From assembly GCA_964494475.1 (NCBI GenBank), contig CAZBRS010000003.1:80286-144285 (forward strand): a stretch of DNA of 64,000 nucleotides, given 5' to 3'. The DNA comes from an uncultured Myxococcales bacterium. GTDB taxonomy: Bacteria; Myxococcota_A; UBA9042; CAZBRS01. Below, in pieces: positions 2,280-62,425 of this stretch. Each line of letters opens with the position of its first letter. The stretch's first letter is position 1. The position numbers and the translations under genes were made by a program. The notes beneath the pieces were generated by a model, which saw only the letters and a program-made list of their open reading frames with translations, was not told the origin of the DNA and ran no database searches.

Positions 2280-3473
2280 ATGATCCTACGTCGCCTCCTC
2301 ATCGCTGCGCTCGTCGTGCTCTGGAGCCAGGTGGCCACCGCCGAGATCTACGGCTTCGCCATCAACAAGATCGAGGGCTTGAACGGCGTCGAGCTCGACG
2401 ACCGCTTCGGCGTCACCGCGTCGGCCACCGAGCACCTCGTGAACTACAAGGACTGCCTGGCCTACCTGAACATCGACGCGGGCCAGAGCCTCGATCCCGA
2501 GAGCACCGTCGAAGAGGTCGTCGAGGCGACCACGACCGACGTCGTCGAGACGGTCGACGTCGCCGAAACGGTCGACGCGGCCGACGCCGCGAGCGACTCG
2601 GCCTCGCCGGCCGACACGTCGACCGACGGCTCCGGCGGGGGCGGCGGCGCAACCACCGAGGGCATCCGCAAGATCTCGATCGACTTCAGCGTCAACGACT
2701 CGCTGATCGGCAAGTGGTGGTACTCCATCCGCATCGGCAGCTGCACCGAGTCGTCCGAGGTCGACGAGGCCGCCACCGACTCGTGCACCTACCTGCGCCA
2801 GAAGACCGAGCTCACGCGCTACTCGACCGACACCATCGAGATCCCCGTCACGCGCATCCTCGGCTACGAGTGTGCCAAGGGCTCCACCGACGACGTGCGC
2901 CTCTACTTCACCATCCAGAGCGACCTCGACTACAACCAGCGCGGCACCGAGACCGTCGACATCGAGCTCGACTACGACGCGCCCAAGCCGGTGACGAACC
3001 TCACGCTCGAGGCGGGCGAGGAGAACCTCTCGGTGGCGTGGGACGATGAAGCCAACGCCGACACCGAGACCGTCACCTACCGGGTCTACTGGTACGACGC
3101 CTCGTTCGACGAGGACACCCTCGACGACGTGTCGAGCAAGGGCGATCTCACCGCCAAGGCGTTCCAGATTACCGGGCTCGAGAACGGCAAGGACTACTGG
3201 GTCGGCGTGGTCGCCCTCGACGACTTCGACAACGAGTCCACGCTCCCCGATCTGGTCGAGGGCACGCCCGTGCTGGTCACCGACGGCTTCGAGGCCTACA
3301 AGGACGCCGGGGGCGCCGAGAAGGGTGGCTTCGGCTGCACGGTGAATGGCGGCAGCGCGACCTCGGGCGCCGAAGCCTCGGCGAAGGCGGCGGCCGTGCT
3401 GCTGCTCCTGGCGGTCGCGCTGCTCGCGGTGCTGCCGCGGGGCGGGCGCCGCAACGCCGGGAGGGGAGCATGA
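2280..3473 (+). CDS. Secreted fibronectin-III-like domain protein with a MYXO-CTERM-like C-terminal sorting tail
   Basis: There is a signal peptide, MILRRLLIAALVVLWSQVATA. An acidic Thr/Asp-rich region follows, then an FN3-like segment (SVAWDD...YRVYWYD...GLENGKDYWV). The C-terminal tail GGFGCTVNGG...AAAVLLLLAVALLAVLPRGGRR is MYXO-CTERM-like. Confidence 0.7.
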   Translation: MILRRLLIAALVVLWSQVATAEIYGFAINKIEGLNGVELDDRFGVTASATEHLVNYKDCLAYLNIDAGQSLDPESTVEEVVEATTTDVVETVDVAETVDAADAASDSASPADTSTDGSGGGGGATTEGIRKISIDFSVNDSLIGKWWYSIRIGSCTESSEVDEAATDSCTYLRQKTELTRYSTDTIEIPVTRILGYECAKGSTDDVRLYFTIQSDLDYNQRGTETVDIELDYDAPKPVTNLTLEAGEENLSVAWDDEANADTETVTYRVYWYDASFDEDTLDDVSSKGDLTAKAFQITGLENGKDYWVGVVALDDFDNESTLPDLVEGTPVLVTDGFEAYKDAGGAEKGGFGCTVNGGSATSGAEASAKAAAVLLLLAVALLAVLPRGGRRNAGRGA

Positions 3474-4189
3474 ACCGCGTCGTCCTCGCCCTGCTGTTCA
3501 GCCTGGCCCTGCCCGCCAGCCTGGGGGCCGAGAGCCCGCGCAGCGTGAACCTCGAGTTCAAGCTGGCCGCCTGGTACGTACCCGAGGTCGACGACGAGTT
3601 CCCCGCGGGGGTGCACCCCTACCGCGACGTCTACGGCGACGGCTCGCTGCTGCTCTTCCAGATGCGCAGTGACTACATCTTCTACTCCGGCGTCTTCGGC
3701 ACCGTCGGGGCGGGCGGCGGTTTCGGCTACGGCCAGAAGACGGGCCATGGCTTCCTGACCGACGGCAGCCCCTCCAGCGACGACACCACGCTGCACCTGC
3801 TGCCCCTCGAGGGCGGCCTGCTCTACCAGTACGACTACCTGGCGACCCGATGGAACATCCCGGTGGTCCCCTACGGCCGCGCCGACCTGGCCTACGCCTT
3901 CTGGTGGATCACGAACGGCGTCGGCGACACGGCGGCCTACGTCGTGAACGGCGAGAAGCAGGCCGACGGCAAGGGCGGGACCTGGGGCTTCCGCCTGGCG
4001 GGTGGGGGCAAGCTGCTCCTCGACGTCTTCGCGCCCTCCATGGCCCGCACGTTCGACGTGGACTTCGGCGTGAACAACTCGTACGTGCTGGTCGAGTACG
4101 TCTGGACGCGCCTCGACGACTTCGGCTCCGCCTCCAGCATCCGGCTGGGCGGCGGGTACGTGAACTTCGGCCTGGCCTTCGAGTTCTGA
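3470..4189 (+). CDS. Outer-membrane beta-barrel protein
   Basis: There is a signal peptide. The protein is rich in Gly and aromatic residues, with an alternating pattern. The C-terminus ends FEF, with a terminal Phe. ATGA overlap with the upstream gene suggests translational coupling. Confidence 0.6.
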   Translation: MNRVVLALLFSLALPASLGAESPRSVNLEFKLAAWYVPEVDDEFPAGVHPYRDVYGDGSLLLFQMRSDYIFYSGVFGTVGAGGGFGYGQKTGHGFLTDGSPSSDDTTLHLLPLEGGLLYQYDYLATRWNIPVVPYGRADLAYAFWWITNGVGDTAAYVVNGEKQADGKGGTWGFRLAGGGKLLLDVFAPSMARTFDVDFGVNNSYVLVEYVWTRLDDFGSASSIRLGGGYVNFGLAFEF

Positions 4190-4192
4190 GCG

Positions 4193-5002
4193 GTGCGCTC
4201 CCTCCGGCTGCTCATCGCCTTCGACGGCACCGACTTCTCGGGATTCCAGCGCCAACCGAACGTCCGCACCGTGCAGGGCGAGCTCGAGGCCGCGGTCCTC
4301 GCGCTCACGGGCGAGACCACGCGCGTGCGCGGCTCGAGCCGCACCGACGCGGGCGTCCACGCGCGCGAACTGCTCGTGAGCTTCCAGACCGAGCGCGCCT
4401 ACCCGCTCCGAGCCTTCCACCTGGGACTGAACGCGCTGCTGCCGCCCGACGTGGCGGTGATGGAGGCCGCCGAGGCCCCCGACGGCTTCAACGCCCGCTG
4501 GGCCTCGCTCGGCAAGACCTACTCGTACACCCTCTGGAACGCGCGCTCGCCGAACCCGCTGCTCCGTCGCACCGCGTGGCACCTGAAGAAGCCCCTCGAC
4601 GTCGACCTCGTCCGCGCCGCCCTGCCCGACCTGGTGGGCTCGCGCGACTTCGCGTCGTTCCGGGCCGCGCACTGCGACGCGCCGACCACCGAGAGGGAGG
4701 TCTGGCGGGCCACGTGGGACGTCGAGGGCGACACGCACCGCTTCACCATCTGCGGCAACGCCTTCCTGCGCAACATGGTGCGCATCGTGGTGGGCACGTT
4801 GGTCGAGATCGGGCTCGGTCGACGTCCCCCCGACGATCTTCGGCGCCTCTTCGAGGTCCTCGATCGAACCCAGGCGGGCGAGACCGCGCCGCCCCAGGGC
4901 CTCACGCTCGAGCGCGTCTTCCTGACGCGCGCGGCGCTGTTCGAGCACCTGGGCCGCGAGGTCCGGGTGTACAAGGAGCCGTTGGTCGACGACCCCACCT
5001 GA
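4193..5002 (+). CDS. truA: tRNA pseudouridine(38-40) synthase TruA
   Basis: GTG start. The conserved RTDAGVHA motif is present, and the overall TruA signature includes FLRNMVR. Confidence 0.85.
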   Translation: MRSLRLLIAFDGTDFSGFQRQPNVRTVQGELEAAVLALTGETTRVRGSSRTDAGVHARELLVSFQTERAYPLRAFHLGLNALLPPDVAVMEAAEAPDGFNARWASLGKTYSYTLWNARSPNPLLRRTAWHLKKPLDVDLVRAALPDLVGSRDFASFRAAHCDAPTTEREVWRATWDVEGDTHRFTICGNAFLRNMVRIVVGTLVEIGLGRRPPDDLRRLFEVLDRTQAGETAPPQGLTLERVFLTRAALFEHLGREVRVYKEPLVDDPT

Positions 5003-5011
5003 TGCAGCGAC

Positions 5012-5470
5012 CTACTCGGGGAAGAGGCGCGAGACGTGCGATCCGTCGGGCGCGTGGGCGGCCAGCAGGAATCGCCCCCGCAGGTTGGCCCCCAGGGGGT
5101 CGAAGACGGCGCGCGGCTCGGAGGCGGCGGCCAGCCAGGCACGAACCTCCACGTCGGCCAGCAACTCGGCCAGCAGCGCGTCGAAGCGAGCGCTGAAGTC
5201 GGCCACCACGTCGGACAGATCGGGGTCGGAGGGCTCGTCGGGCCGGAGGGGGAACGCCACCTCGGTGAGCACGAGCAGCCGCGGAGGCACGTCGACGGTG
5301 CGCGACAGCGTGAGCTCGATTCGCTCCTGCAGGGGGGGATCGAGCGCCGCCACGCGCGCCGACGCCACCTTCCACGACGCCAGCAGCGGAGCGGCCGAGC
5401 CGCGGCGCGCGCGCTCGAGCGCCTGCTCGACGGTCAGGGTGGGCGCGACTTCGTTGGGGGGAGTGGCCAC
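5012..5470 (-). CDS. Hypothetical acidic protein downstream of the calpain-like protease
   Basis: High GC3 on the same strand and in the same operon as the calpain-like gene. No recognisable domain. Confidence 0.45.
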   Translation of the reverse strand: MATPPNEVAPTLTVEQALERARRGSAAPLLASWKVASARVAALDPPLQERIELTLSRTVDVPPRLLVLTEVAFPLRPDEPSDPDLSDVVADFSARFDALLAELLADVEVRAWLAAASEPRAVFDPLGANLRGRFLLAAHAPDGSHVSRLFPE

Positions 5471-5498
5471 GGCGAACCTCCGATGATGCGGCCGGTGC

Positions 5499-6662
5499 TC
5501 AGGCGTACTGCAGCTCGGCGAAGATGTCGTCGAACTCCGGGAGCGACAACGTGAAGACGCCCGTGGCCTCGCCCGGCGCGCCCTTGGGGTTCGACCCCCA
5601 CGGGTTCCGGATCGTGATGCGATCGGCCTTGGCGTCCCAACCGATTACGCTGTAGGCGTGCCCCTTGGGCAGCTTGAGCCGGTTCTCGGTCATCACGGCC
5701 GCCGTCACGATGCGGCCCTCCTTGAAGGCACGCGTGAGCTTGCCCCGGGTCGCGGCCAGCCCCGTGAGCGCCAGGAAGTCGTGGTCGCCGCGATGCCCGC
5801 TGAACGTGAGGACGCCCTCGCTCAGCAGGTTGCCATCGCCGACCTCGGCCTGACGATCCGTCTGGGCGCTCTTGCCCTTCACCTGGCCGTAGGCCTTCTC
5901 GAGCACCGGCAGCCACAGCCCGTCGCCGCCCGACGACGAGTAACGCGCCACTTCGGCGTCGGTGGGCGGCGCGATGGTCACCGTCCCCCGGCCCGGGAAG
6001 TCGACCGTATAGCCGACGACCTGCTTGCCCTTGCGGTTCTCGCGAATCATGCGGACCACGGCCAGGGGGTCGCGCGCGATGACGCTGCCGAGAGCCGCCA
6101 GGAAATAGCAGTCGCCCAGGCCGCCCTGCCTGAGCGCCGAGAGGGTGGGCGCGCCGTTCGGGAACAGCACGCGGGACTGACCCGCGATCCGCGCCAGCCC
6201 GTTCGAGTGCGACAGGTCGACGCCGCGCTTCTTTCCGGCCTCGTAGGCCACGAGATCGGTGCGCGAGAGCCCGTCGTTCTCGTCGCCGAGCTCGTCGTTC
6301 GACAGCTCTTCGAGATCCTCGATGGCCTTGTGCAACGCCGCCACGGCCGCCGCCTCGGCGCCCGTGATGCGGGGGTCGAGCATCAGCGAGTTGGCCTCGG
6401 CCCGCGAGATGAAGCCGTCGCCGTTCCGGTCCCACGTCGAAAAGCGCGCGCGCGCGATGGTGGCCCACCCCGACGCCGGCACCGCCGGCTTCACCGCCGT
6501 GGCGCCGGCCCCGGCGGCCGTCGTCGGACGCAGCGCCGCGGTCTGGGCTCCGTAGCCCGTGGCGGGCACGTTGGCGCGCGCGACCGTCGTACGCGTCTTG
6601 TCGGCCGGCGCTACCGAGGGGGTCGCAGCGGTCTTCGGTTGGGGCTTCTGGTCGTGGGGCAA
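5499..6662 (-). CDS. Calpain-like cysteine protease (peptidase C2 catalytic domain) with an N-terminal EF-hand
   Basis: The EF-hand loop is DRNGDGFISRAE. The calpain catalytic triad motifs are QGGLGDCYFLAALG, KGHAYSVIGW and RNPWG. A TTG start at 6662 is proposed, preceded by GGGAGG with a 6-nt spacer. The upstream part of the 597-aa ORF is an S/T/R-rich frame artefact that collides with the lipoprotein gene at 6781. Confidence 0.7.
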   Translation of the reverse strand: MPHDQKPQPKTAATPSVAPADKTRTTVARANVPATGYGAQTAALRPTTAAGAGATAVKPAVPASGWATIARARFSTWDRNGDGFISRAEANSLMLDPRITGAEAAAVAALHKAIEDLEELSNDELGDENDGLSRTDLVAYEAGKKRGVDLSHSNGLARIAGQSRVLFPNGAPTLSALRQGGLGDCYFLAALGSVIARDPLAVVRMIRENRKGKQVVGYTVDFPGRGTVTIAPPTDAEVARYSSSGGDGLWLPVLEKAYGQVKGKSAQTDRQAEVGDGNLLSEGVLTFSGHRGDHDFLALTGLAATRGKLTRAFKEGRIVTAAVMTENRLKLPKGHAYSVIGWDAKADRITIRNPWGSNPKGAPGEATGVFTLSLPEFDDIFAELQYA

Positions 6663-6780
6663 GCGGGCCTCCCGCCCCGACGAGGGGCGATGCGTTCCTT
6701 CTGCGGCGTCGATGGTATAGAATTCACCCGCGACCCGCAAGGCGAGCGCCCCCGGGGCCCGCTGCCGGGGAGGGAGGCCC

Positions 6781-7320
6781 ATGCCACGTCTCGTGACCGC
6801 GCTGCTCGTGCTCGTGCTCCTCGGCTGCCGCGGCGCGCCCGCCGCCGTGCCTCCCGAGTGCGGGCCGACGCGCCTCGACGAAAGTCGCGTCAGGGCGGCG
6901 CTCCCCCTGGTGTTGCCCCCCGAGCTCGCCGCCTGGAACGTGATCGCGCTCCAGCAGGACGCCTGCCCGGGCGCCGAGGCCTGGGAGCGGGTCGACGTGA
7001 CGCTCGAGGCCGCCCCTCGCGAGGGAGCACCGACCTGGCGGGCCGTGCTGACGCTGCGGCTCTCCGTACCCGAGGCGCGCCTGGTCGAAGGCGACGAGAT
7101 GCCCGCGGTGCGCGCAGTGGCCGAAGCGGCCGGGCGATGTCGCGAGCTCGAGGCCCTGGAGCCCGTCGTCGCCTGGCTCGCGACGCACGGCCCCGCGCTG
7201 GCCGTCCTCGAGCCCGGCGCACCCGACCTGGCCGTGGTGCACCTTCGGCCCCGCGAGGCGTCGGCTGGCGGGACCGAGCTCCGCTTCGCCACCCGGCTCG
7301 GTCGTCCCCTCCCGCCCTAG
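6781..7320 (+). CDS. Lipoprotein, hypothetical
   Basis: The ribosome binding site GGGAGGGAGG precedes the ATG. The signal peptide carries an LLGC lipobox. GC3 is high. Confidence 0.6.
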   Translation: MPRLVTALLVLVLLGCRGAPAAVPPECGPTRLDESRVRAALPLVLPPELAAWNVIALQQDACPGAEAWERVDVTLEAAPREGAPTWRAVLTLRLSVPEARLVEGDEMPAVRAVAEAAGRCRELEALEPVVAWLATHGPALAVLEPGAPDLAVVHLRPREASAGGTELRFATRLGRPLPP

Positions 7321-7392
7321 GAACGTGGACTTTTCGCCCGAATCGGCGACAATGCGCTCGATTCCGGGCCCCGCCCCAACGGAGACCACGCC

Positions 7393-8712
7393 ATGCGGCT
7401 CGCGAGCTTCCTCCTGCTCCTGATCGGACTCTCTCCGGCCCCCGTGTCAGCTCAGGCTCCCCTCGGCGGCCTGTCGGCGCTGGGCGGCGAGAACGTCGAC
7501 ATCTTCTCGATCCACGTGGTCGTGGGCCCCTCCGAGCGCGATCTGGAGTCGGTGGCGCTGTGGATCAAGGAGTGCGAGCCGTCCGATCGTCCGGCAGTCT
7601 GCGGCGAGCTGATGCGCCTCCTGAACAAGGACCTGCAGCTGACCGGGCTCTTCCGCCTGGTCGACCCCACGGCCCTGATCGTCGATCGCGACAAGGAGAG
7701 CTACGAGACCACCCAGTACCAGGGCTGGTTCGACAGCGGCGCGCGCTACCTGGTGAAGGGCGCCGTGCGCGACGGCAAGGTCTCGCTCAAGCTGCACAAC
7801 GTGCTCGAGAAGGGCTCGTTCCGGTTCAAGAACGAGTCGTTCGCCGCCGACGAGAAGAGCCTCGTCAAGGGCGTGCACGGCTTCATGAACGAGCTCGTCC
7901 TCGCCCTGTCGGGCCAGAAGGGGCTGTTCGACTCGGTCATCTGGTTCGTCGCCATGGGCGCCAAGGGCACCAAGTCCATCCGCTCGTGCTATCTCGACGG
8001 CACCGGCCTCTCGACGCTCATCGACAACGGCTCGGTCAACCTCTTTCCGGCACCCGCGCCGGGCGGCAAGGTGCTCTACACATCGTTCCTGGCCGGCCTG
8101 CCGCAGATCTTCATCGGCGACAAGCGCCTCACCCACGACGATCTGCAGTACCGCGGCGCGCAGTTCTCACCCGACGGCAAGCGGTTGGCCGTGGCGGTCA
8201 ACGTCGACGGCGACGGCGATCGCGAGAGCCAGACCGACATCTTCCTCATGGACCCCGAGTCGGGCCGGCTCGGCAAGAACCTGACCGAGTCCGACGCCGA
8301 CGAGGTCACCCCCTCGTGGTCGCCCGACGGCGGGCAGCTCGCGTTCGTGTCGAACCGCAGCGGCAACCCCCACATCTACGTCATGAACGCCGACGGCACC
8401 GGCGCGCGCCGCCTCACCTACGCCGGCATCTACAACAGCACGCCCGACTGGGGCCCCAACGGCCTCATCGTGTTCACCGGGCTCGACGAGGGCAACGCCG
8501 ACATCTTCACCGTCGACCTCGGCGGCAACCTGCGGCGCCTCACCCAGGACCAGGGCAAGAACAAGGACCCGCGCTGGGGCCCCGACGGCCGGTACATCAC
8601 CTACGTGTCGCGCCGCAGCGGCTCGTGGAACCTGTACCTCATGACCCCCGACGGTCGCTATCAGTGGATGATCGTGAACGGGGAAGGCGATCTGTCGACG
8701 CCCTGGTGGTAA
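7393..8712 (+). CDS. tolB: Tol-Pal system beta-propeller protein TolB
   Basis: There is a signal peptide and a TolB N-domain. PD40/WD40-like repeats are present (SPDGKRLA, SWSPDGGQLAF and NPHIYVMNADG). Confidence 0.85.
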   Translation: MRLASFLLLLIGLSPAPVSAQAPLGGLSALGGENVDIFSIHVVVGPSERDLESVALWIKECEPSDRPAVCGELMRLLNKDLQLTGLFRLVDPTALIVDRDKESYETTQYQGWFDSGARYLVKGAVRDGKVSLKLHNVLEKGSFRFKNESFAADEKSLVKGVHGFMNELVLALSGQKGLFDSVIWFVAMGAKGTKSIRSCYLDGTGLSTLIDNGSVNLFPAPAPGGKVLYTSFLAGLPQIFIGDKRLTHDDLQYRGAQFSPDGKRLAVAVNVDGDGDRESQTDIFLMDPESGRLGKNLTESDADEVTPSWSPDGGQLAFVSNRSGNPHIYVMNADGTGARRLTYAGIYNSTPDWGPNGLIVFTGLDEGNADIFTVDLGGNLRRLTQDQGKNKDPRWGPDGRYITYVSRRSGSWNLYLMTPDGRYQWMIVNGEGDLSTPWW

Positions 8713-10446
8713 CTAACCTGCCGGATTGAACACGAACGGCCACTTGACGATGCAGATGCCGCCCTTGGGCTTCTGGAACGTCATGCGACGGATGCTGCGG
8801 AGCACGCAGTCCTCGACCTGCCCGTTCTTCAGGGTGGTCGCGATCACCGTGGCGTTCTGGGCCTTGCCTTCCTGGTCGATGGTCCAGCGCACGTCGATCT
8901 TGCCGGCCAGATCGGGGTTCAGGATGAGCTGGCTCTCGTAGCACGCCTTGATGGCGTTCTTGCGGCGCATCACCATGTTGCGGATGTTGCTCTTCTCGCA
9001 GAAGCCCTCGGCGCTGCCCTGGCCGAAGTTGATCTGCGACACCTTCTTGGTGCCCTTGCGACCCAGGCTGGCCTTCATGCCCACGCCGCCCCCGGTATCG
9101 ATCTTGCCGAGGCCCTGGATGCGCCCGTAGCCGCCAGCGCCACCGCCGCCCTTGCCCGTTCCGCGGAAGCCGAGGCCTCCGGATCCGTGGCCGAGGACGA
9201 ACTCGGCGCCCGTGCCGCTCATGGCGACGGCCAGCTTGTTGTTGAACCCCTCGTCGTTGGACATGAGGTTCGAGAGCGCGCTGTTGTTGTTCAGGTTGTC
9301 GGACAGCATGGAGTTCAGGCCGATCTTCTTGGGATCGATCTCCTTGACCATCTTGCCGTCGCGCTTCGGCACCTTGCTCTCGAGGTCGGGATCGACGTCG
9401 GTGTCGCCGAACTTGCCCTCGTCGCCTTCGGCCTGCTTGCCGGTGGTGTCTTCCTCTTCGCCGAGATCCTGCTGCTTCTGCTCCTCGAACGTCTCGAACT
9501 CGACCTTGAGCGTCTTGTTCGGGTCGTCGATCTTGGGCTTGGCGGGGGACTCGACCCAACTGAACAGCGAGAACGCCAGCAGCCCGAACTGCAACACGAC
9601 CGACGCCAGGAACACGCCCATGAGGTCACGGTCGAACACCATGCCGAGCGAGCCGAAGCGCCGGTGCTGCCGCACGAAGCGGAAGAACAGGTTCACGCGG
9701 CCGATGTTCCACACACCCCAGTCGCCGTCGTTGAACGGCACGTAGTTGACGCCCGAGACGTTGAAGGTGTTGGCCTTCAGGAACTCGGCGATCTCGCTCT
9801 TCTTTCCGCCGATGGAGACCTGGCCCTTCATGGCGGTCGACAGACCGATCTTGTATTCACCGGCGCCCGTGGCCGTGAACAGCTTGAACGACTTGGGCAG
9901 GTCGGTCGAGGGCACCGTGAACGTGTTGGCGATGCCCTCGCCCGCCGTGACGTCTTGCGGTTCGGTGAACATGAGCTCGTGCACGACCTCGCCGTGGAAG
10001 AACTGCGCCACGCGCAGGAACGGCCCGTGCGGCAGCCAGCCCGTCTCGGCGTTGACCGTGGCCAGGCCGCCGACCAGCAGCGCCACCGAACCCAGCATGA
10101 CGAAGTAGTACCCCACCAGCGCGATGATGACATCGGTCTGGAAGATCTGCGGACAGGCCAGGAAGATGTAGCCGAGGGTGGCCATCGTCCAGAGCCCGAA
10201 CACGATGTTCGCGGCGCCGTAGGCCCGCCGCATCTTGCGAACGAAGATGACCGCGCTGACCCCGAGCGAGAGCACGAGCGTCGCGATGAGCATCGCGATC
10301 GAGCCGGTGGGCCCCTCGAGGCCCAACAACCACTCGAGCCCCGTGACGTTCATGAGGAGTTGTTCGAGCTCGAAGAACGGAAGGACCGTCGCCCCGATGA
10401 GCGCGACGAACGCGCCCACGACGGAGATCAGGAGTCCTTTCTTCAT
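8713..10446 (-). CDS. Polytopic inner-membrane protein with a C-terminal TonB/TolA-C-like (AgmX/PglI-type) domain
   Basis: There are about five N-terminal TM helices. A Lys/Glu/Asp/Gly-rich low-complexity linker follows. The C-terminal 100 aa (AIKACYESQLILNPDLAGKIDVRWTIDQEGK...VLRSIRRMTFQKP) fit a TonB_C-like pattern. The stop codon directly abuts the tolB stop, with 0 nt between them. Confidence 0.6.
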   Translation of the reverse strand: MKKGLLISVVGAFVALIGATVLPFFELEQLLMNVTGLEWLLGLEGPTGSIAMLIATLVLSLGVSAVIFVRKMRRAYGAANIVFGLWTMATLGYIFLACPQIFQTDVIIALVGYYFVMLGSVALLVGGLATVNAETGWLPHGPFLRVAQFFHGEVVHELMFTEPQDVTAGEGIANTFTVPSTDLPKSFKLFTATGAGEYKIGLSTAMKGQVSIGGKKSEIAEFLKANTFNVSGVNYVPFNDGDWGVWNIGRVNLFFRFVRQHRRFGSLGMVFDRDLMGVFLASVVLQFGLLAFSLFSWVESPAKPKIDDPNKTLKVEFETFEEQKQQDLGEEEDTTGKQAEGDEGKFGDTDVDPDLESKVPKRDGKMVKEIDPKKIGLNSMLSDNLNNNSALSNLMSNDEGFNNKLAVAMSGTGAEFVLGHGSGGLGFRGTGKGGGGAGGYGRIQGLGKIDTGGGVGMKASLGRKGTKKVSQINFGQGSAEGFCEKSNIRNMVMRRKNAIKACYESQLILNPDLAGKIDVRWTIDQEGKAQNATVIATTLKNGQVEDCVLRSIRRMTFQKPKGGICIVKWPFVFNPAG

Positions 10447-10555
10447 TGTCGCCCCCGTGCGGATGCGGCCCCGAGCGGCCAGACCTGCGGTATGGTAGTA
10501 AGGTCGCCTTGGGGCGTCAAGCGTTTTGGGCTCGCGCGTCGAGCCAGGAAATTCG

Positions 10556-10584
10556 TTGACAGCCCTCTACCCCGTCGATATCAT
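10556..10584 (+). promoter_or_regulatory. Sigma70-like promoter, TTGACA-17nt-TATCAT, upstream of the tolQ/aglR-like operon
   Basis: TTGACA lies at 10556-10561 and TATCAT at 10579-10584. They sit in the divergent intergenic region about 65 nt upstream of the ATG at 10653. Confidence 0.4.
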
Positions 10585-10652
10585 CCCGTCCGTTGCCCGG
10601 CCGTGGTATTGGCCGCGGTAGGTTCATTCCTGTCTATTCTGGGAGGAGCCAG

Positions 10653-11312
10653 ATGAGCTTCATCGCGGAGTCGTTCGAGAAGGGCGGATGGATGATGTGG
10701 CCGATCCTCATCACGAGCATCTTCGTGTGGGGTGTGGCAATCGAGAGAACCATTTACCTGTTCTTCCGGGCCAGCGCCCCCGCGGAGGCGCTCCTGCACC
10801 TGCTCGAGCGGTCCATCATGTCGGGCGACCTCGCCCGCGCCATCAAGGACTCCTTGACGCAGAACTCGCCCCTGGCGCGCATCATCCGCTCGGGCCTCAC
10901 CAAGGTCGAGCGCGGCACCGACGAGGTGCAGGCCGCCATCGACGAGGCCGCCCTCCGCGAGCTGCCGAAGATCGAGAAGCGCACGGCCTACCTTGCCATG
11001 TTCGGCAACGTCGCCATGCTCCTCGGCCTGCTCGGCACCATCACGGGCATGATCATTTCGTTCGGCGCCGTCGCGAACGCTGATCCGTCCGAGAAGGCCT
11101 CCCTGCTGGCCCGCGGCATCTCCGAAGCCATGAACTGCACCGCCTTCGGTCTGATCACGGCCATCCCGGCGCTGCTGTTCTTCGCCATCCTCCAGGGCAA
11201 GACGCAGAAGCTCATCGACGACATCAACGAGGGCTCGATCCGCGTCGTCAACCTGGTGCTGGCGCACAAGGACCAGCTCCTGTCGAAGGAGTCCACGCGT
11301 ACGAAGGGCTAA
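10653..11312 (+). CDS. MotA/TolQ/ExbB-family proton channel, AglR/TolQ-like
   Basis: The ribosome binding site GGGAGGAG precedes the ATG. There are three TM helices with the conserved family architecture. Confidence 0.8.
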   Translation: MSFIAESFEKGGWMMWPILITSIFVWGVAIERTIYLFFRASAPAEALLHLLERSIMSGDLARAIKDSLTQNSPLARIIRSGLTKVERGTDEVQAAIDEAALRELPKIEKRTAYLAMFGNVAMLLGLLGTITGMIISFGAVANADPSEKASLLARGISEAMNCTAFGLITAIPALLFFAILQGKTQKLIDDINEGSIRVVNLVLAHKDQLLSKESTRTKG

Positions 11313-11367
11313 ACACCCGTCGTCGCGTTCCTGACTCCCTCCAACCTGCCTTCGGGAGGAGCACAGC

Positions 11368-11850
11368 ATGGCTGGCGGTGGATCCCCGACTCCGAGCAAG
11401 AGTGGCAAGAAGTCCTTGGACTTCGTCGTCAATCTTGTGCCGATGATTGACCTTCTCTCCGTGCTGATCTCGTTCCTGCTCATCACCGCCGTGTGGACCG
11501 AGTTGGCTCGCATCAACACGGACAACGTGATGGACAAGTCCGACGTCAAGCCCAAGCAGGAGCAGCAGGAAGAACGCAAGGACCTGAAGATCCTGCTCGA
11601 CGACAAGGGCGGCGTTCAGATGCGCTTCACGGGCGAAGAGCCCGTTCGCGTCGAGCGGGGTGACGACCTCATGGGTCGCTTCCGCGAGAAGATCACCGAG
11701 CTCAAGAAGCGCGCCAAGGAGAACCAGAAGGTCATCGTCGCCGCCGAAGACAAAGTCCAGTACGAGCTGCTCATCCAGGTCATGGACATTTGCCTCGACG
11801 TCGGCCTGAAGGCGCTCTCGGTCGGTGATCCGAGCGCGTTCGAGTCCTAG
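11368..11850 (+). CDS. ExbD/TolR-family protein, copy 1
   Basis: There is a single TM helix carrying the conserved Asp (VPMIDLLSVL) and a periplasmic ExbD fold. Confidence 0.8.
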   Translation: MAGGGSPTPSKSGKKSLDFVVNLVPMIDLLSVLISFLLITAVWTELARINTDNVMDKSDVKPKQEQQEERKDLKILLDDKGGVQMRFTGEEPVRVERGDDLMGRFREKITELKKRAKENQKVIVAAEDKVQYELLIQVMDICLDVGLKALSVGDPSAFES

Positions 11851-11877
11851 TCTGGCACTGCGCCGCGGGAGGTTCCG

Positions 11878-12438
11878 ATGCCCGTAAAGAAGCCCCAGAA
11901 GCAGATCGGCAAATCGATCAGCTTGAGGTTCTACAAGAAGAGCGCGCACGGCAAGGCCTCGATGCTGGCCGACCTCAACGTGACGCCCATGGTCGACATG
12001 CTCATGATGCTCGTCGTGTTCCTGCTGATGTCGTTCAGCGCCTCCGGCGAGATCCTGTTCATCTCCAAGGACATCACCCTGCCCAAGGCCTACAACTCCG
12101 TGACCCTCGACCGCGCCCCCGTAATCGCGGTCTCCGCGTCGTCCGTGGCGCTCGAAGGCGAACTGGTCATGCGCACCGGCGACGTCGATGAGCGCTGGTA
12201 CTCCGACTGGAAGCTCCCGCCCGTCATCGAACGCCTGGAGCGCATGCGTCGCCTCGCGCAGGAGGCCAACCCCGACAGGCCGTTCAAGGGCGAGGTCATC
12301 ATCCAGTCCGACGGACAAGTGCAGTTCGCGGTCATCAAGATGGTCATGTTCTCGTGCGCCCAGGCTGGCTACGTGAACGTGAACTTCGCCGTTCAGAAGG
12401 GTGGCAAGGCCGTCGTCACCACCGGCGGCGAGCACTGA
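11878..12438 (+). CDS. ExbD/TolR-family protein, copy 2
   Basis: The TM helix carries the conserved Asp (TPMVDMLMML). It is a second paralog in the same operon. Confidence 0.8.
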   Translation: MPVKKPQKQIGKSISLRFYKKSAHGKASMLADLNVTPMVDMLMMLVVFLLMSFSASGEILFISKDITLPKAYNSVTLDRAPVIAVSASSVALEGELVMRTGDVDERWYSDWKLPPVIERLERMRRLAQEANPDRPFKGEVIIQSDGQVQFAVIKMVMFSCAQAGYVNVNFAVQKGGKAVVTTGGEH

Positions 12439-12464
12439 GCCGCGGCCCTTCGTCAGGGGGTCCC

Positions 12465-13505
12465 GTGCCCCTCTTCTTCTTTCGCTTCTTCCCTCGACAT
12501 CGCCTCGGGTTGGTGCTCGCGCTCGGCTTCCTGCTGCTCGTGGCCGGGGCCTTCGTGTTCTTCACCTGGCGCGGCCGCGACGTCCTGACCGACTTCTACG
12601 AGCCCAAGCTGCTGACCCTGCGCGTGGGGGGCGTGACCGTCTATCCCTCCACCAGCGCCATGGCCGAGGTCATGGCCGGTCTGCCGGTCGAGGTGACCTG
12701 CGAGGTCGTGGCGCCCGCGCGCCCGGGTGAGCAGTCGCACTTCGTCCTGCAGGGGGGCGGAGAGCCCGTGAGCGCGAAGGGATGCAACGCGAAGCTCGCG
12801 TGGAGCGGTCCCTCCGGCCAGGAGGGGCGCGTGTCGGTCGAGTACCACGTGCGTGGGGCCGACGGCACCGATCGGCTCATCGAGCGCCGCGAGGCCAAGG
12901 TCACCCTGGTCGCGCAGCGCGAGTACCTCCGCATCCGCTCGCTGGAAGACGATCAGCAGCGTCCGCTCCCCACCCTGACCGTACCGCGCTCGGTCGTGCC
13001 GTTCGTCGACGCGGCGTTGCGCCTCGAGGGCAGCCCGGAGCACTACGCCGTGCTCTTCTTCGTGCGCAGGCAAGGCGGCACCTCCCCGGTGCTGCAGGTT
13101 CTGGTGCCGCCCGACGATCCCAAGGCCTGGCGCCCCGTGGTCGCGCCGTTGCGAAAGTTCCGCTCGTGGGGCGAGGGTCTGAATGGCTTCGCTGCCTGGC
13201 CCGGGGGCCGCGACCCGCGCAAGGATCAGCCGGCCGACCCCATCCAGATCGGCAACCAGGAAGAGACCCGCGTGGCGTTCGAGCTCTTCGCGGGCCTGTT
13301 CCGCCTGGCCGACGTGCCGCGCGTGACCGAGGCCGCCATCAGCCTCAAGGAGGTCGGCGGCGAGCGCGCGGTGTTCCAGGTCAAGGGGCTCGAGCTCGAG
13401 GCCCTGCGCCAGATCGCGTACAAGGGCTGGCTGAGCGAGCCCGTCACCGTGGTTCGCGCCGAGGTCGCCCCCAAGGCCACCACGTTCGAGTGGCGCGCCG
13501 AGTAG
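12465..13505 (+). CDS. Hypothetical membrane-anchored periplasmic protein, last gene of the motor operon
   Basis: A GTG start is proposed at 12465, after AGGGGG. There is a single N-terminal TM helix (LGLVLALGFLLLVAGAFVFF). It lacks the TolA-like Ala/Lys/Glu-rich helical region. Confidence 0.5.
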   Translation: MPLFFFRFFPRHRLGLVLALGFLLLVAGAFVFFTWRGRDVLTDFYEPKLLTLRVGGVTVYPSTSAMAEVMAGLPVEVTCEVVAPARPGEQSHFVLQGGGEPVSAKGCNAKLAWSGPSGQEGRVSVEYHVRGADGTDRLIERREAKVTLVAQREYLRIRSLEDDQQRPLPTLTVPRSVVPFVDAALRLEGSPEHYAVLFFVRRQGGTSPVLQVLVPPDDPKAWRPVVAPLRKFRSWGEGLNGFAAWPGGRDPRKDQPADPIQIGNQEETRVAFELFAGLFRLADVPRVTEAAISLKEVGGERAVFQVKGLELEALRQIAYKGWLSEPVTVVRAEVAPKATTFEWRAE

Positions 13506-13529: not shown

Positions 13530-15221
13530 ATGAAGATCCTGGGCCTCAACTTCTCGAACGACTCGGCGGCGGCCCTGGTCGTCGACGGGCGCATCGAAGC
13601 GGCCGTCCAGGAGGAGCGCTTCTCCCGCGTCAAGCACGACCGCGCCTTCCCCTTCCAGGCGGTGCAGTACTGCCTGGCCCACGGAGGCCTGCAGCTCGCC
13701 GAGCTGGACGCAGTGGCGTTCTTCTGGAACCCGCTCCAGCACATGGACACCTACAGCGCGCGCATGAACAGCGCGTTTCGGCACCACCTCGAGTACCTGT
13801 ACGACGTGCCCGCCAGCCTGGCCCGCTATCTTCCCACGGCTTGGACGCGCGCCCCCTACGTCAAGCTCAGCGTTCCGCTGCCCGACGGGCGCGAGCTGCC
13901 GTTCTACTTCGTCGAGCACCACCTGGCGCACGCCGCCTCGGCCTTCCTGGGCTCGCCTTGGGACGAGGCCGCCATCCTGACCGTCGACGGCTACGGCGAG
14001 CGCACCACGACCCTCCTGGCGCGTGGCAAAGGCACGTCGCTCGAGGTGCTCGGGCGCGTCGACTTTCCGCACTCCATCGGCTCGGTCTACGCGGCCGTCA
14101 CCGAGTTCCTGGGCTTCAAGCCCAACCGCGACGAGGGCAAGGTCATGGGCCTCGCCTCCTACGGACAGCCGCGCTACCTCGAGGCGTTCCGCGAGCTGGT
14201 GCGGCTCACCGACGACGGCTACGAGGTCGACCTCAACGCGTTCCGGTACTACCTGGAGGCGCCCCACCGCTTCTCGGACGCCTTCGTGGCCCGCTTCGGC
14301 GCCCCGCGCGCGGCCGAGGCTCCGCTGACCGAGCGCGACCAGGACCTGGCCGCCAGCCTGCAGGCGCGCACCGAGGAGGTGCTCCTGCACCTGGCGCGGC
14401 GCCTGCGCGAGAAGACGGGCCTGAAAGCCCTGGCCATGGCCGGCGGGGTCACGCTCAACTGCGTGGCCAACGGTCGTCTCCAGCGCGAGGCCGGCTTCGA
14501 CGAGTACTTCTTCCTGCCCGCCTCGAGCGACGCCGGGGCCAGCCTGGGCGCCGCGCTCTACGTCGAGCACGTGCTCGGCAAGAACCCGGCGCGCTTGCCC
14601 TTCCCGGGCGAGTACCTGGGCCCGTGTTACACCGACGCACAGATCGAAGAGCGCCTGGCGCGCGGGGGCGTCCGGGCCGTACGCGTCGACGGCATCGAGC
14701 AGCGCGTGGCCGAGCTGCTGGCCGAAGGCAGGATCGTGGGCTGGTTCCAGGGCCGGGCCGAGTTCGGGCCCCGCGCGCTCGGCAACCGGAGCATCCTGGC
14801 CGATCCGCGCCGAGTCGACATGAAGGACGTGCTGAACGCGCGCGTGAAGTTCCGTGAACCGTTCCGACCCTTCGCCCCCTCTATCTGCGAGGAGGCCTGC
14901 GGGCAGTTCTTCTCGAGCGCGGTACCGTCGCCTTACATGCTGCGCGTCTACGACACGCTGCCCGACAAGCGGGGCGTGCTGCCCGCCATCACCCACGTCG
15001 ACGGCGGCGCGCGCGTGCAGACCGTGAACCGGCAACAGAACCCGAAGTACTACGACCTCATCCGCGCCTTCGGCGACCTCACGGGCGTGCCCTGCGTGGT
15101 GAACACCTCGTTCAACGTGCGGGGCGAGCCCATCGTCACGACCCCCGAAGAGGCGTACCGCTGCTACGCCAGCACCGACATGGACGCGCTGGCGATCGGA
15201 TCCTATCTATTCGTGAAGTAG
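13530..15221 (+). CDS. NodU/CmcH-family carbamoyltransferase
   Basis: The N-terminus is MKILGLN..DSAAAL..DGRI..AVQEERFSRVKHD. Both the N and C carbamoyltransferase domains are conserved. Confidence 0.8.
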   Translation: MKILGLNFSNDSAAALVVDGRIEAAVQEERFSRVKHDRAFPFQAVQYCLAHGGLQLAELDAVAFFWNPLQHMDTYSARMNSAFRHHLEYLYDVPASLARYLPTAWTRAPYVKLSVPLPDGRELPFYFVEHHLAHAASAFLGSPWDEAAILTVDGYGERTTTLLARGKGTSLEVLGRVDFPHSIGSVYAAVTEFLGFKPNRDEGKVMGLASYGQPRYLEAFRELVRLTDDGYEVDLNAFRYYLEAPHRFSDAFVARFGAPRAAEAPLTERDQDLAASLQARTEEVLLHLARRLREKTGLKALAMAGGVTLNCVANGRLQREAGFDEYFFLPASSDAGASLGAALYVEHVLGKNPARLPFPGEYLGPCYTDAQIEERLARGGVRAVRVDGIEQRVAELLAEGRIVGWFQGRAEFGPRALGNRSILADPRRVDMKDVLNARVKFREPFRPFAPSICEEACGQFFSSAVPSPYMLRVYDTLPDKRGVLPAITHVDGGARVQTVNRQQNPKYYDLIRAFGDLTGVPCVVNTSFNVRGEPIVTTPEEAYRCYASTDMDALAIGSYLFVK

Positions 15222-17356: not shown

Positions 17357-18460
17357 CTACGGAGCAGCCCGGTTTCCGTCGACCCCGGCCTCGGGCTTCG
17401 GGAGCGTGGCCAGCAGCGCCTCGAGCTTCTTCAGGCTCTGCTCGCTCTTCTCCATCCACTCGTTCTCGGCGCGCACGCGGCGGCCCATCTCGAGGTTCTT
17501 GCGGTAGACCTCGATGGCCCTCCGGACGAGCGGCGCGATGTGACGCTTCAGCTCGGCGAAGTAGACCTCGCGCGCCTCGGCGTCGAGCTCGGCAGGCACC
17601 TCGGCCGCGTGCAGGTCGGCGGTGAAGTCCTCGTAGGCCTGCCCGATGCGATATCCCGCGGCCAGGGCCCAGTAATGGTCGCGCATGCGAATGGCCTTGA
17701 GGAAGGCGTTCTGGGCGTTCAACAGCAGGCGTCCCTTGGCCTCGAGGTCGACCCGCATGCGCTCGAGCGGCAACAGCAGCGGAACCTGCGAGGAGCGCTC
17801 GGCGAAGAGGTCGCCCACCTGGTACTGGGCGCGAGCGGCCCACGTGGGGTGGTACTGCAGGAAGAGGTCGGTGGTCTGCCGGTAGAGCTGCACGGCCTCG
17901 CGGTAGTGGGCGCGCGCGGCGTCGTAGTGCCCGGCCCGTTGGCGGCAGATGCCCGCGCGCACGAGCTGCTCGACGCGCTGGGCCGGTGCGCCCTCGGCGA
18001 CGAGCAGGTCTTCGAACGCCTGGGCCGCGGCCTGCCACTGGCCGAGCCCCGCCCAGGCGATGGCCAGGTGGAAGCGCGCGTCGCGAGCGTCGCCGTTCGT
18101 ACCGGCCCACGCCTCGGCCGCCTCGAAGTCACGCACGGCTTCGCGGTAGTCTTCGAGGCGCATGGCGACCAGCCCGCGGTTGAAGGCGTACAGGTCGCGC
18201 CAACGCGACTCGGGGTGGGCGCTCCGGAGCGCCGTGTAGATGCGCCGTGCGGCCGGCAGGTCGTCGCGCTCGTAGGCCCTCACGGCCTCGTCGAAGAGGT
18301 CGCGCTCGTCGCCCATCACGACCGTCGAGCGCCCCCCCCGGTCCATCACGAGCACGTGGGTGTCGTCGAGCGTGATCTGCTCGGCCGGGCGGGAGACCGA
18401 GCCGCACGCGGTCGCGACGAGGAGCAGGAGGACCATGACGGGACGAACCATGACGCCCAT
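17357..18460 (-). CDS. TPR-repeat lipoprotein
   Basis: The signal peptide carries the lipobox LVATAC. Several TPR-like repeats are rich in Ala, Tyr and Arg. Confidence 0.65.
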   Translation of the reverse strand: MGVMVRPVMVLLLLVATACGSVSRPAEQITLDDTHVLVMDRGGRSTVVMGDERDLFDEAVRAYERDDLPAARRIYTALRSAHPESRWRDLYAFNRGLVAMRLEDYREAVRDFEAAEAWAGTNGDARDARFHLAIAWAGLGQWQAAAQAFEDLLVAEGAPAQRVEQLVRAGICRQRAGHYDAARAHYREAVQLYRQTTDLFLQYHPTWAARAQYQVGDLFAERSSQVPLLLPLERMRVDLEAKGRLLLNAQNAFLKAIRMRDHYWALAAGYRIGQAYEDFTADLHAAEVPAELDAEAREVYFAELKRHIAPLVRRAIEVYRKNLEMGRRVRAENEWMEKSEQSLKKLEALLATLPKPEAGVDGNRAAP

Positions 18461-22986: not shown

Positions 22987-24207
22987 ATGCGCTGGATCTT
23001 CAGGCTGCTCCTCCTGTTGCCCCTGGTGGCCCTCGGCCTGTTGGCGCTGGCCTGGGCGCTGTTGGTCCACACCGACGCCCCCGCGCACGTCGTGACCACC
23101 GGATTCAACGACGAGAACACCCGGCTGTGGCTCGAGGCCCGAACGGCTCGCCTGCACGGCGACCTGATGGGCCTGCGGATCGAGGACCTCTCGCTGGCCG
23201 AGCGCACGCGCACGCAGCCCATGGTGCGCGTCGAACGCTTCGATGCGAGCTTGAGCGCGCTGCCCACCGATGACCTCGTCGACATCGATCGCGTCGAGGT
23301 GAGCGGACTCGACATCGATCTCGACGTGGCCTGCCTGCCCGCCCTGCAGGAGTTCGCGATCCGCAAGGCCGAGCCCCCGAAGCCCGGCGGGCCGGCGCCG
23401 TCGGTCCGCTTCGGGAGGCTCGTGCTCACCGACGCGTCCTTCGCGTGGCGGGGCGCCGCGTCGTCCGTCGAGATCCCCGACCTCGACCTCGAGCTCTCGG
23501 GCGTCACGGGACCGGCCACCGACGTGACGCTCGCCGCGAGCCTGGCGGGCGCCACCATCGGCGCCGCGTCCACGGCGGTCAAGCTGGGCAAGCTGAAGCT
23601 CGACGGCTCGTTGAAGGGCAGCACGGAGGGCTCGGGAGAGTTGAAGCTCGACGCCGTCGCGCTCGAGAGCGTCGAGGCCGGCGCCTGGCGGATCGGGGGG
23701 CTGGCGCTCGGGGAAACGACGCTGACCTTGCAGGGACTCGGTGGGCGGCTGGTCCTCGGCGCGCTCGGGCTCCGCAGCCTCACCGGCCCCGACTTCGATC
23801 TGGCCGACGCCACCCTCTCGCTCGACGCCACGGGAGGGCTGGCCGGCGTCGAGCTCACGCGGGCCGCGCTCTCCTCGCCGCGCCTCTCGATCACGCTCGA
23901 CGGCACCGCGAAGCCCACCCTCGGCCTCACGGGCAGCGGCCTCGAGGTCAAGCTGCAGGGCTCGTTCCAGGTCGAGCCCGCGGCGCTGCTGCCGAAGGCC
24001 TGCGCCGGCGTCACCCGCGCGAGCGGGCGCTTCCTCGTCACGGGCGGATCGAAGGGCGGCCTGAAGCTCGACTCGCTCACGCTCACGATGACCGGCGCCG
24101 ACGGCGACCACGAGTTCACGCGCTCGGGCGTGGCGCTGACCGAAGGTGCGGTCGTACGAGCCCTCTTCAGTGAACTGTGCTCCACGGTGGGCACCGGAGC
24201 GCCGTGA
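22987..24207 (+). CDS. AsmA-like membrane-anchored protein, first gene of the TamB/Omp85 operon
   Basis: The ribosome binding site GGAG precedes the ATG at 22987. There is an N-terminal TM anchor, followed by beta-rich repeats rich in Gly and Leu. Confidence 0.55.
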   Translation: MRWIFRLLLLLPLVALGLLALAWALLVHTDAPAHVVTTGFNDENTRLWLEARTARLHGDLMGLRIEDLSLAERTRTQPMVRVERFDASLSALPTDDLVDIDRVEVSGLDIDLDVACLPALQEFAIRKAEPPKPGGPAPSVRFGRLVLTDASFAWRGAASSVEIPDLDLELSGVTGPATDVTLAASLAGATIGAASTAVKLGKLKLDGSLKGSTEGSGELKLDAVALESVEAGAWRIGGLALGETTLTLQGLGGRLVLGALGLRSLTGPDFDLADATLSLDATGGLAGVELTRAALSSPRLSITLDGTAKPTLGLTGSGLEVKLQGSFQVEPAALLPKACAGVTRASGRFLVTGGSKGGLKLDSLTLTMTGADGDHEFTRSGVALTEGAVVRALFSELCSTVGTGAP

Positions 24208-28415: not shown

Positions 28416-28416
28416 C

Positions 28417-61362: not shown

Positions 61363-61396
61363 TCCGGGCCCCTCGTGGTCCGTTCAGGAGACGCGA

Positions 61397-62401: not shown

Positions 62402-62425
62402 GTGGACCAGCACAGGAGCCCCCGC

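Follow-up and report, generated by a model that had tools for sequence, protein, structure and literature searches.

A predicted Agl-type motor paired with a GltG-family protein recurs in uncultured Myxococcota

Results

A conserved module of five genes

A 64,000-nucleotide stretch of DNA from an uncultured Myxococcales bacterium (assembly GCA_964494475.1, contig CAZBRS010000003.1, positions 80,286 to 144,285 of the forward strand; hereafter the window) contains a conserved unit composed of a gene for a 577-amino-acid protein, G (8713-10446, minus strand), and a divergent operon (10653-13505, plus strand) encoding a TolQ/ExbB-like protein (Q), two ExbD/TolR-like proteins (D1 and D2) and a transmembrane (TM)-anchored protein following D2 (U). 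G belongs to the GltG family, from which it differs by four extra N-terminal TM helices, and Q, D1 and D2 are predicted to form a motor of the Agl type, not of the Tol or Exb type. Agl motors that stand alone, and multiple clusters derived from Agl/Glt whose function is unknown, have been reported before (PMC3169522, PMC3858216); the novelty lies in the conserved pairing of an Agl-type motor with a GltG-like protein carrying four additional TM helices and with U, in the absence of GltD, GltE and GltC. We consider it fairly probable that the unit is a minimal, stand-alone force-transducing module of the Agl/GltG kind, with neither these three scaffold proteins nor the outer-membrane Glt parts encoded in its neighborhood, and that the TolB-like gene beside it is a recent, lineage-specific neighbor.

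The 206-bp spacer between G and the operon (10447-10652) serves as a divergent intergenic control region. Both of the sigma-70-like matches found in 9.1 kb (0.3 expected by chance) lie within it and face outward, one on the plus strand (10556-10584, TTGACA-17-TATCAT, 11/12) and the other on the minus strand (10520-10492, 9/12). The start of Q was corrected from TTG 10593 to ATG 10653, which is the most likely start and has a GGGAGG Shine-Dalgarno sequence upstream, and the start of U was moved from 12354 to GTG 12465; both corrections match the gene calls of public contigs. Within the operon, Q and D1 are separated by 55 nt and D1 and D2 by 27 nt. A terminator-like hairpin overlapping the U start (12455-12474) was disregarded because such sites were not commoner than in shuffled sequence (6 found, 3.7 expected). 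The GC content of the window is about 70%, and GC at third codon positions (GC3) exceeds 0.85 in the real genes. Horizontal transfer of the 8-12 kb region, where GC dips to 0.63-0.65 (vs about 0.70), was rejected because GC3 stays at 0.86-0.94 and the dip tracks amino-acid composition. The exact 577-residue G was seen only on metagenome contigs sharing the layout of the window.

Family assignment of the motor proteins

Q (10653-11312, plus strand; 219 aa, three TM helices) is an AglR-like stator subunit of the TolQ/ExbB family, matching PF01618 (MotA_ExbB) with 100 bits. D1 (11368-11850, plus strand; 160 aa) and D2 (11878-12438, plus strand; 186 aa) are AglQ-like and AglS-like members of the ExbD/TolR family, respectively, each with one TM helix, and matched PF02472 (ExbD) with 63.5 and 59.8 bits. 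The TM aspartates of both proteins (D28 in D1 and D40 in D2) were each kept in 24 of 24 orthologues. Q contains the channel motifs GLLGT and TAFGLITAIP (TAFGLxxAIP), the former being seen in all checked Q homologues but one (L028). A charged linker follows the TM helix of D1, and D2 has a longer cytoplasmic N-terminal tail. The divergent operon outlined in an earlier note on this DNA, with one MotA/TolQ gene, two ExbD/TolR genes retaining the TM aspartate and a TM-anchored periplasmic protein, is therefore real.

When the three proteins were scored on the TolQ and TolR equivalog models (TIGR02796, cut-off 221 bits; TIGR02801, cut-off 127.3 bits), the values obtained were far below these limits (79.6 bits for Q, 39.9 for D1 and 35.2 for D2). 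Q reached 58 of the 206 bits required by the ExbB equivalog, and D1 and D2 at most 26 bits on the ExbD equivalogs, whose cut-offs are 153-216 bits. Similar values on the TolQ/TolR models (78.3, 30.6 and 22.1 bits) were obtained for the motor of an Agl/Glt cluster on a Bdellovibrionales contig reached through a weak G homologue (L130), and a near-canonical TolQ/TolR pair from Myxococcota (L039) scored 219 and 113.5 bits. In L130, a MotA_ExbB gene and two ExbD genes are followed by genes for a 999-aa tetratricopeptide repeat (TPR) protein, a 91-aa protein and a GltG-like protein, by further genes and by an outer-membrane barrel. The gene sizes of L130 (225/148/165/999/411 aa) match those of the published Bdellovibrio bacteriovorus Agl/Glt cluster Bd0420-Bd0416 (248/149/165/987/408 aa), of which Bd0419 is listed as an AglQ homologue and Bd0418 as an AglS homologue.

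Direct comparison with this cluster gave the same picture. Q aligned over its full length with the L130 Q (155 bits, 39% identity) and scored 55-68 bits against the TolQs of TolB-linked canonical Tol-Pal operons. In a neighbor-joining tree, these canonical TolQs were split from an Agl-type clade consisting of L130, the second motor set of another locus (L027) and all Qs of the window type. D1 scored 46.6 bits with the first ExbD of L130 and D2 scored 40.4 bits with the second, the cross pairs giving about 20 bits; within the window, D1 and D2 are 26% identical (31 bits). This one-to-one pairing was repeated in 25 further loci of the window type. D1 and D2 are each orthologous to the corresponding Agl subunit of the gliding cluster L130 and, because the pairing is one to one, represent an old heterodimer common to gliding-type motors rather than a recent tolR duplication. 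Their lengths and domain boundaries are close to those of the Myxococcus xanthus proteins: D1 (160 aa, PF02472 span 15-152) compares with AglQ (162 aa, span 15-158), and D2 (186 aa, span 28-174) with AglS (194 aa, span 28-176). Against sequences of the Protein Data Bank (PDB), where no Agl structure was found, Q was equidistant from TolQ (44 bits) and ExbB (40 bits).

The equivalog scores (rounded, 80/40/35 vs 221/127) and the orthology of D1 and D2 to the L130 subunits agree with the suggestion of the earlier note that the locus follows the AglR-AglQ-AglS logic rather than that of a Tol-Pal operon. Clear TolQ, TolR and ExbD orthologues accompanied by tolA and pal, which the same note had named as the finding that would speak against it, were not seen; all scores fell below the cut-offs, and the Pfam and NCBIfam scans, which covered positions 1-60285 of the window and left out the last three called genes (60385-63763), detected no OmpA/Pal, TolA or CpoB/YbgF, the absence of Pal and TolA resting on Pfam for most genes. 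The models themselves performed as expected on a canonical metagenomic Tol-Pal locus used as positive control (L116), which exceeded the NCBIfam cut-offs for TolQ (234 bits), TolA, TolB, Pal and CpoB, with TolR slightly under (117 vs 127), and the missing tolA, pal and cpoB of the earlier note were thus borne out in the scanned window.

G as a member of the GltG family

The assignment of G rests on two NCBIfam models, a TM scan and a structure model. Its C-terminal domain matched the AgmX/PglI C-terminal domain (NF033768) with 96.7 bits (cut-off 40), and the best full-length model was GltG (NF033760, 143.5 bits), whose positions 224-649 align with residues 162-577 of G. As in GltG, the aligned part runs from the cytoplasmic region preceding the TM helix through the C terminus. 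Hydropathy placed TM helices at residues 4-22, 50-68, 81-99, 107-125 and 277-295 (TM5), with a soluble stretch (126-276) between the fourth and the fifth. The soluble parts comprise a cytoplasmic FHA-like β domain (approximately 143-258), a periplasmic linker (296-470) and a TonB-CTD-like (C-terminal domain-like) AgmX/PglI domain (484-574) with four cysteines, of which three are invariant and one is nearly invariant in an alignment of 24 homologues. The order of one TM helix, a long disordered periplasmic linker and an AgmX/PglI domain is that of GltG.

An AlphaFold2 (AF2) model based on 24 homologues had a predicted local distance difference test score (pLDDT) of approximately 80-90 in the TM bundle, the β domain (143-258) and the C-terminal domain, and was disordered at residues 297-466. 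Foldseek related the β domain to FHA domains and the C terminus to the C-terminal domains of TonB, FusB and TolA (probability about 1.0, TMt 0.5-0.65); all E-values were above 0.001 (best 0.007), a weakness due to the use of a multidomain model as query. A PDB sequence search with G returned nothing meaningful, neither TIGR01352 (tonB_Cterm) nor Pfam TonB_C matched the G of the window, and canonical Tol-Pal loci gave no match to its C-terminal domain. The description of this protein as polytopic and convergent with the TolB-like gene was confirmed, with five predicted TM helices and directly contiguous stop codons (TAA 8710-8712 of the TolB-like gene and reverse-strand TAG 8713-8715 of G). The term TonB-C-like, which had been applied to it, holds for the fold of the C-terminal domain; the membership in the GltG family, evident from NF033768, NF033760 and Foldseek, had been missed.

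The periplasmic linker is acidic and contains 18% Gly and 3% Pro. It includes an invariant stretch, EGKFGD ... GHGSGGxGFxGTGxGGGG ... GLGKIDTGGG, in homologues that are only 36-67% identical overall. The Gly-rich motif, in full GHGSGGxGFxGTGxGGGG..GYGRIxGLGKIDTGGG, lies within residues 331-460 (window 9067-9456), where the AlphaFold pLDDT is 31-46. Strong conservation of a motif without a predicted fold suggests that the segment folds on a partner. In a published model, a disordered segment of GltG wraps GltD (PMC11761067), and by analogy the Gly-rich motif of G is probably a partner-binding segment.

U

U (12465-13505, plus strand; 346 aa) is a bitopic protein with an N-terminal TM helix (14-32), a periplasmic Ig-like β domain with two invariant cysteines (C79 and C107) and a poorly modeled C-terminal half containing a conserved R233/G236 motif. 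It had no Pfam or NCBIfam match. The family is very small, as a profile search against 1.84 billion representatives found 35 clusters at 50% identity; ten of these were looked up and were of metagenome or metagenome-assembled genome (MAG) origin, with neither an informative name nor a cultured source. U lies after the motor, or faces it, in about 15 species loci.

Conservation and neighborhoods of G and the motor

Scanning one genome per GTDB species yielded 128 relatives of G, and the counts given here cover the best 80. All 80 come from MAGs, mostly labeled Myxococcota, Myxococcales or Deltaproteobacteria, with a few labeled, for example, Enterobacteriaceae or Klebsiella. G adjoins Q-D1-D2 in 21 of them, 17 loci having the order G>Q>D>D> and 4 the order Q>D>D>G>; a third arrangement, the divergent one of the window, is also present in L087 and L091. 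Because it recurs in 21 of 80 species genomes and in different gene orders, the linkage between G and the motor is more than chance. The nearest relative (L087; G 66% and Q 81% identical) retains the layout U<D<D<Q<G>. A neighbor-joining tree of G contained one large clade without motors, located between cystathionine-pathway and Fur/FeoB genes, and a second clade that includes the G of the window, with motor adjacency scattered across several subclades.

Frequent neighbors of G were a MlaF-MlaE-MlaE-MlaF-MlaD set, small TPR proteins, TatA and PBP1A. In many of the loci L005-L046, and for example in L089 (3063-7182), a duplicated Mla-type set and a small TPR protein lie upstream of G, and TatA and PBP1A often lie downstream. 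No such Mla-type set was present in the window, nor any homologue of the TPR families that flank G elsewhere (families 12, 17 and 23). A 367-aa TPR protein encoded 4 kb downstream of U (17357-18460, minus strand) gave sub-threshold matches to BamD and YbgF/CpoB (29-31 bits; YbgF 29 vs 90); as homologues were found 4-6 kb from G in L044, L057, L063 and L072, a loose association of this family with G is possible. Bradymonas sediminis was the one cultured organism in which a G homologue was found; its G is short and has neither a motor nor TolB within 10 kb. The context of a true FHA-containing GltG (P0082, L090) included GltD-, GltE- and GltF-like genes and no motor. Near G and the motor, in the window or in window-type loci, no homologues of GltD, GltE, GltF, GltC, GltA or GltB were detected.

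Two further layouts of motor genes were observed among these loci. L027 carries, at 2504-9041 (minus strand), a second Agl-type set, in which a TolQ-like gene (249 aa) is accompanied by two small ORFs and by a GltG-like protein of 496 aa exceeding the tonB_Cterm cut-off; the set adjoins Wza-, Wzc- and EpsL-like polysaccharide export genes and is reminiscent of the Agl-Nfs/Exo spore-coat system. A TolQ/TolR-like pair comes after a G-family gene and an intervening gene for an Ala-rich protein (411 or 333 aa) in L039 (10001-14491) and L054 (1195-5968). The L039 pair is near-canonical (TIGR02796 219 vs 221, TIGR02801 113.5 vs 127.3), and the L054 pair groups with it by placement in the Q tree rather than by model score. 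In some Myxococcota, then, a G-type protein also sits beside a motor of the Tol type.

The TolB-like gene, the lipoprotein and the carbamoyltransferase

As the earlier note had described, a lipoprotein gene precedes a tolB-like gene on the plus strand, and a carbamoyltransferase gene comes next after the operon. The first is an ORF of 179 aa (6781-7320) with the lipobox LLGC. The second (7393-8712) encodes a TolB-like periplasmic β-propeller protein of 439 aa, which has a signal peptide but lacks a lipobox. The third (13530-15221, plus strand), starting 24 nt 3' of U, encodes a NodU/CmcH-type carbamoyltransferase (Carbam_trans_N 220 bits, Carbam_trans_C 240 bits).

The TolB-like protein has the architecture of TolB (TolB_N 32 bits, cut-off 22.4; PD40 87 bits). 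On TIGR02800 it scored 227.7 against a cut-off of 343, in a match that omits the first 42 of 418 model positions; since the TolB of L091 scored 241.5 and those of canonical operons 348 and 362, it is a divergent member of the TolB family. TolB adjoins G only in the species of the window itself (L001-L004) and in L091, whose proteins share 88% (TolB), 82% (G) and 97% (Q) identity with those of the window. In the other loci derived from G or the motor (L005-L090, L129 and L130, including L087), no gene resembling tolB was detected by relaxed tblastn within ±10 kb. The place of TolB in L087 (12047-14645) is occupied by a set resembling a diversity-generating retroelement, with 23S_rRNA_IVP, bAvd, HRDC and reverse transcriptase. 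The lipoprotein had no Pfam or NCBIfam match and no homologue in any other locus, L091 included, and, like the carbamoyltransferase, was seen only in contigs of the same species. All three genes are probably recent neighbors; the lipoprotein is not part of the module, and synteny does not support membership of the TolB-like gene.

The view of the lipoprotein, tolB and the motor as one functional neighborhood was consequently not upheld, TolB being beside G only in its own species and L091 and the lipoprotein being missing from the latter. The comparison of synteny across Myxococcota that had been proposed with it showed that the linkage of G, Q-D1-D2 and U recurs and that the adjacency of TolB is not conserved.

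Discussion

A putative mechanism

Within the TolQR/ExbBD/MotAB family of proton-driven stators, Q, D1 and D2 are predicted to represent an Agl-type member. In M. xanthus, the Agl motor is modular, and AglR binds the TM segment of GltG and NfsG (PMC3169522, PMC3858216); a model of an AglR5-AglQ-AglS-GltG complex has been published (PMC11761067). From the family and from this model, a pentamer of Q would surround a D1/D2 heterodimer in which both subunits contribute a protonatable TM aspartate. By analogy with AglR-GltG and TolQ-TolA, the Q5:D1:D2 complex could convert proton flow into movement of TM5 of G, with the cytoplasmic FHA-like domain of G positioned under the stator. The linker of G, with its invariant Gly-rich motif, and the TonB-CTD-like domain, putatively disulfide-bonded, would extend as far as a partner located in the periplasm or the outer membrane, and U is the best candidate for a periplasmic partner of G or for an adaptor. 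As to the output, we would guess, with low certainty, at general envelope-directed force transduction rather than gliding itself, an envelope role being favored because no Glt scaffold genes lie nearby and relatives of G occur in housekeeping envelope contexts.

Several observations weigh against this account. G remains under the GltG equivalog cut-off (143.5 vs 650 bits); it has no Pfam FHA match (PF00498), its FHA-like domain is devoid of the usual Arg/Ser/His phosphothreonine-binding residues, and TM5 shows no conserved polar residue in the 24-homologue alignment. The first two of these features, together with the four extra helices, are also what sets G apart from GltG. No motor was present within 10 kb of G in 59 of the 80 species, and some motors accompanied by U have no adjacent G (L085 and L086), so that the coupling of G and the motor is not obligatory in gene order. 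The AF2 model of U was weak (mean pLDDT 50, from a 7-sequence alignment), and the role given to U is a guess because of this poor model. The Agl-type assignment draws on the Bdellovibrionales cluster L130 and on gene lengths rather than on the sequences of M. xanthus AglRQS, M2 and AglX/AglV, and Glt/Nfs genes or a tolQRA-pal operon may be encoded elsewhere in the genome, beyond the window.

Relation to gliding and sporulation motors

Glt or Nfs genes elsewhere are the substance of an alternative that we regard as unlikely, in which Q-D1-D2 would be the AglRQS orthologue of this lineage, serving Glt/Nfs-like complexes encoded at a distance, with G as an accessory or alternative GltG. The motor genes do resemble M. 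xanthus AglRQS with GltG/NfsG in having a TolQ-like gene followed by two different TolR-like genes with TM aspartates, in matching order. The sizes of Q, D1 and D2 (219/160/186 aa) and their Pfam spans match those of AglR, AglQ and AglS of M. xanthus (245/162/194 aa) and Anaeromyxobacter (224/162/194 aa), and relatives in L012 measure 223/162/194 aa. Moreover, aglRQS sets located apart from glt clusters are the rule in Myxococcales, and three loci (L017, L022 and L029) carry the submitter label Anaeromyxobacter(aceae), a group in which cultured Anaeromyxobacter has a single stand-alone Agl set. The likeness extends to the core complex of Luciano et al. (2011), compared here through L130 as the counterpart of Bd0416-Bd0420, in the 39% identity of Q, the one-to-one correspondence of D1 and D2 and the G-family C-terminal domain.

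However, the motor of that core complex clusters with the TPR proteins GltD, GltE and GltC (in Bdellovibrio also with GltF and outer-membrane barrels), all of which the window module is without; no GltD/E/F/C/A/B/H/K or Nfs genes lie near the window motor, which is accompanied instead by the unrelated U, and neither G nor the motor has a GltD/E/C/A/B homologue nearby in window-type loci. The canonical FHA domain at the N terminus, which docks on GltI, is also missing from G. Housekeeping envelope genes (Mla, TatA, PBP1A and FtsH) surround G in Bradymonas and many MAGs.

Relation to Tol-Pal

We judge it improbable that the locus is a hybrid Tol system, in which G would act as a TolA analogue energized by an Agl-type motor and work on the TolB-like protein in the upkeep of the outer membrane and in division, with Pal encoded elsewhere or absent. 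The window and Tol-Pal have in common the motor superfamily, a TM-anchored transducer with a TolA/TonB-CTD-like fold and an adjacent TolB-family β-propeller. The TolB-like gene abuts G, an adjacency retained in L091, and a TolQ/TolR pair (near-canonical in L039, as given above) is found two genes away from a G-family gene in both L039 and L054. G-family genes are also frequent in envelope-homeostasis contexts such as Mla. Furthermore, the M2 motor of M. xanthus (MXAN_3003-3005) lies three genes from aglU (MXAN_3008), which encodes a TolB-like WD lipoprotein. On the other side, TolB was missing from the other loci derived from G or the motor, including L087, whose G is 66% identical; the TolB-like protein scored 228 against a cut-off of 343 and canonical values of 348-362; no Pal, CpoB or TolA accompanies the motor in the scanned 60 kb; and the C-terminal domain of G is unmatched in canonical Tol-Pal loci. 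Unlike Tol-Pal, with its single TolR, the window encodes two heterologous TolR-like subunits, and their scores on the Tol equivalogs, like that of Q, are far below the cut-offs.

M2 is an orphan paralogue of the Agl motor that neither gliding nor sporulation requires; its AglR homologue binds neither GltG nor NfsG. The window motor resembles it as a stand-alone Q-D-D set with a TolB-like gene near, M2 itself being without a known transducer, but the sizes differ somewhat (260/173/193 aa for M2 vs 219/160/186 aa), and AglU is a lipoprotein of 547 aa, whereas the TolB-like protein of the window has 439 aa and a TolB_N domain and is not a lipoprotein. A broader proposal, which also strikes us as improbable, is that Tol-Pal and Agl-Glt are connected through the G family as the missing TolA-like link, an Agl-type heteromeric motor driving a GltG-like transducer that works with TolB-family propellers, and that the window, L039/L054 and M2-aglU are traces of one ancestral hybrid. 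If this were true, the window module would supply the unknown partner and the function of the orphan M2 motor.

Relation to TonB-ExbBD

The tonB-exbB-exbD1-exbD2 operons of other bacteria have a similar gene content, with one ExbB-like gene, two ExbD-like genes and a TonB-CTD-like protein. A system of this kind energizing TonB-dependent outer-membrane transporters is nevertheless very improbable here, since, against the match of the G C-terminal fold to the TonB and FusB C-terminal domains and the JGI label 'TonB family protein' on some homologues, stand the unmet ExbB (58 vs 206 bits) and ExbD (at most 26 vs 153-216 bits) models, the lack of a TIGR01352 or Pfam TonB_C match in the G of the window, a linker that is Gly-rich and acidic with 3% Pro where TonB has a Pro-rich spacer, and the absence of a TonB-dependent receptor gene from every annotated neighborhood.

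A proposed third pairing for the Agl motor

The Agl motor powers gliding together with Glt and spore-coat assembly together with Nfs. Other Agl/Glt-derived sets carried by myxobacteria, the ancestral core complex and the orphan M2 motor, have no assigned function. The minimal Agl/GltG-like module favored here would add a third, stripped-down pairing, recurring in at least 21 uncultured Myxococcota species. Should this pairing reflect an ancestral function of the motor, or a housekeeping one, it would reveal the role that this machinery had before becoming a gliding engine. TM5 of G, the Gly-rich motif and U offer concrete candidates for testing. The analysis also corrects a tempting misreading, as the TolB-like gene beside a TolQR-like motor does not make this locus Tol-Pal.

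Other genes of the window

Families named after Myxococcus loci are matched by several genes of the window (MXAN_2561, MXAN_2562 and the AgmX/PglI tail). At 2280-4189, an MXYO-CTERM-type protein of the MXAN_2561 family (71.5 bits, under the cut-off of 150) is encoded together with an outer-membrane β-barrel of the MXAN_2562 family (202 bits), a pair consistent with and supporting the Myxococcota origin of the window. At 24177-31725, a TamB-like gene (1412 aa) and the Omp85/POTRA gene after it (1102 aa) form a TAM-type outer-membrane assembly pair, and a further small Omp85-domain protein is encoded at 40974-42173. At 40296-40970 lies a gene for a 224-aa eCIS_core protein (90 bits), which stands alone, no other contractile-injection genes being seen nearby. 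Finally, a 794-aa protein encoded at 53609-55993 contains acidic double-disulfide repeats (NF033662, 74 bits) and has no Pfam match.

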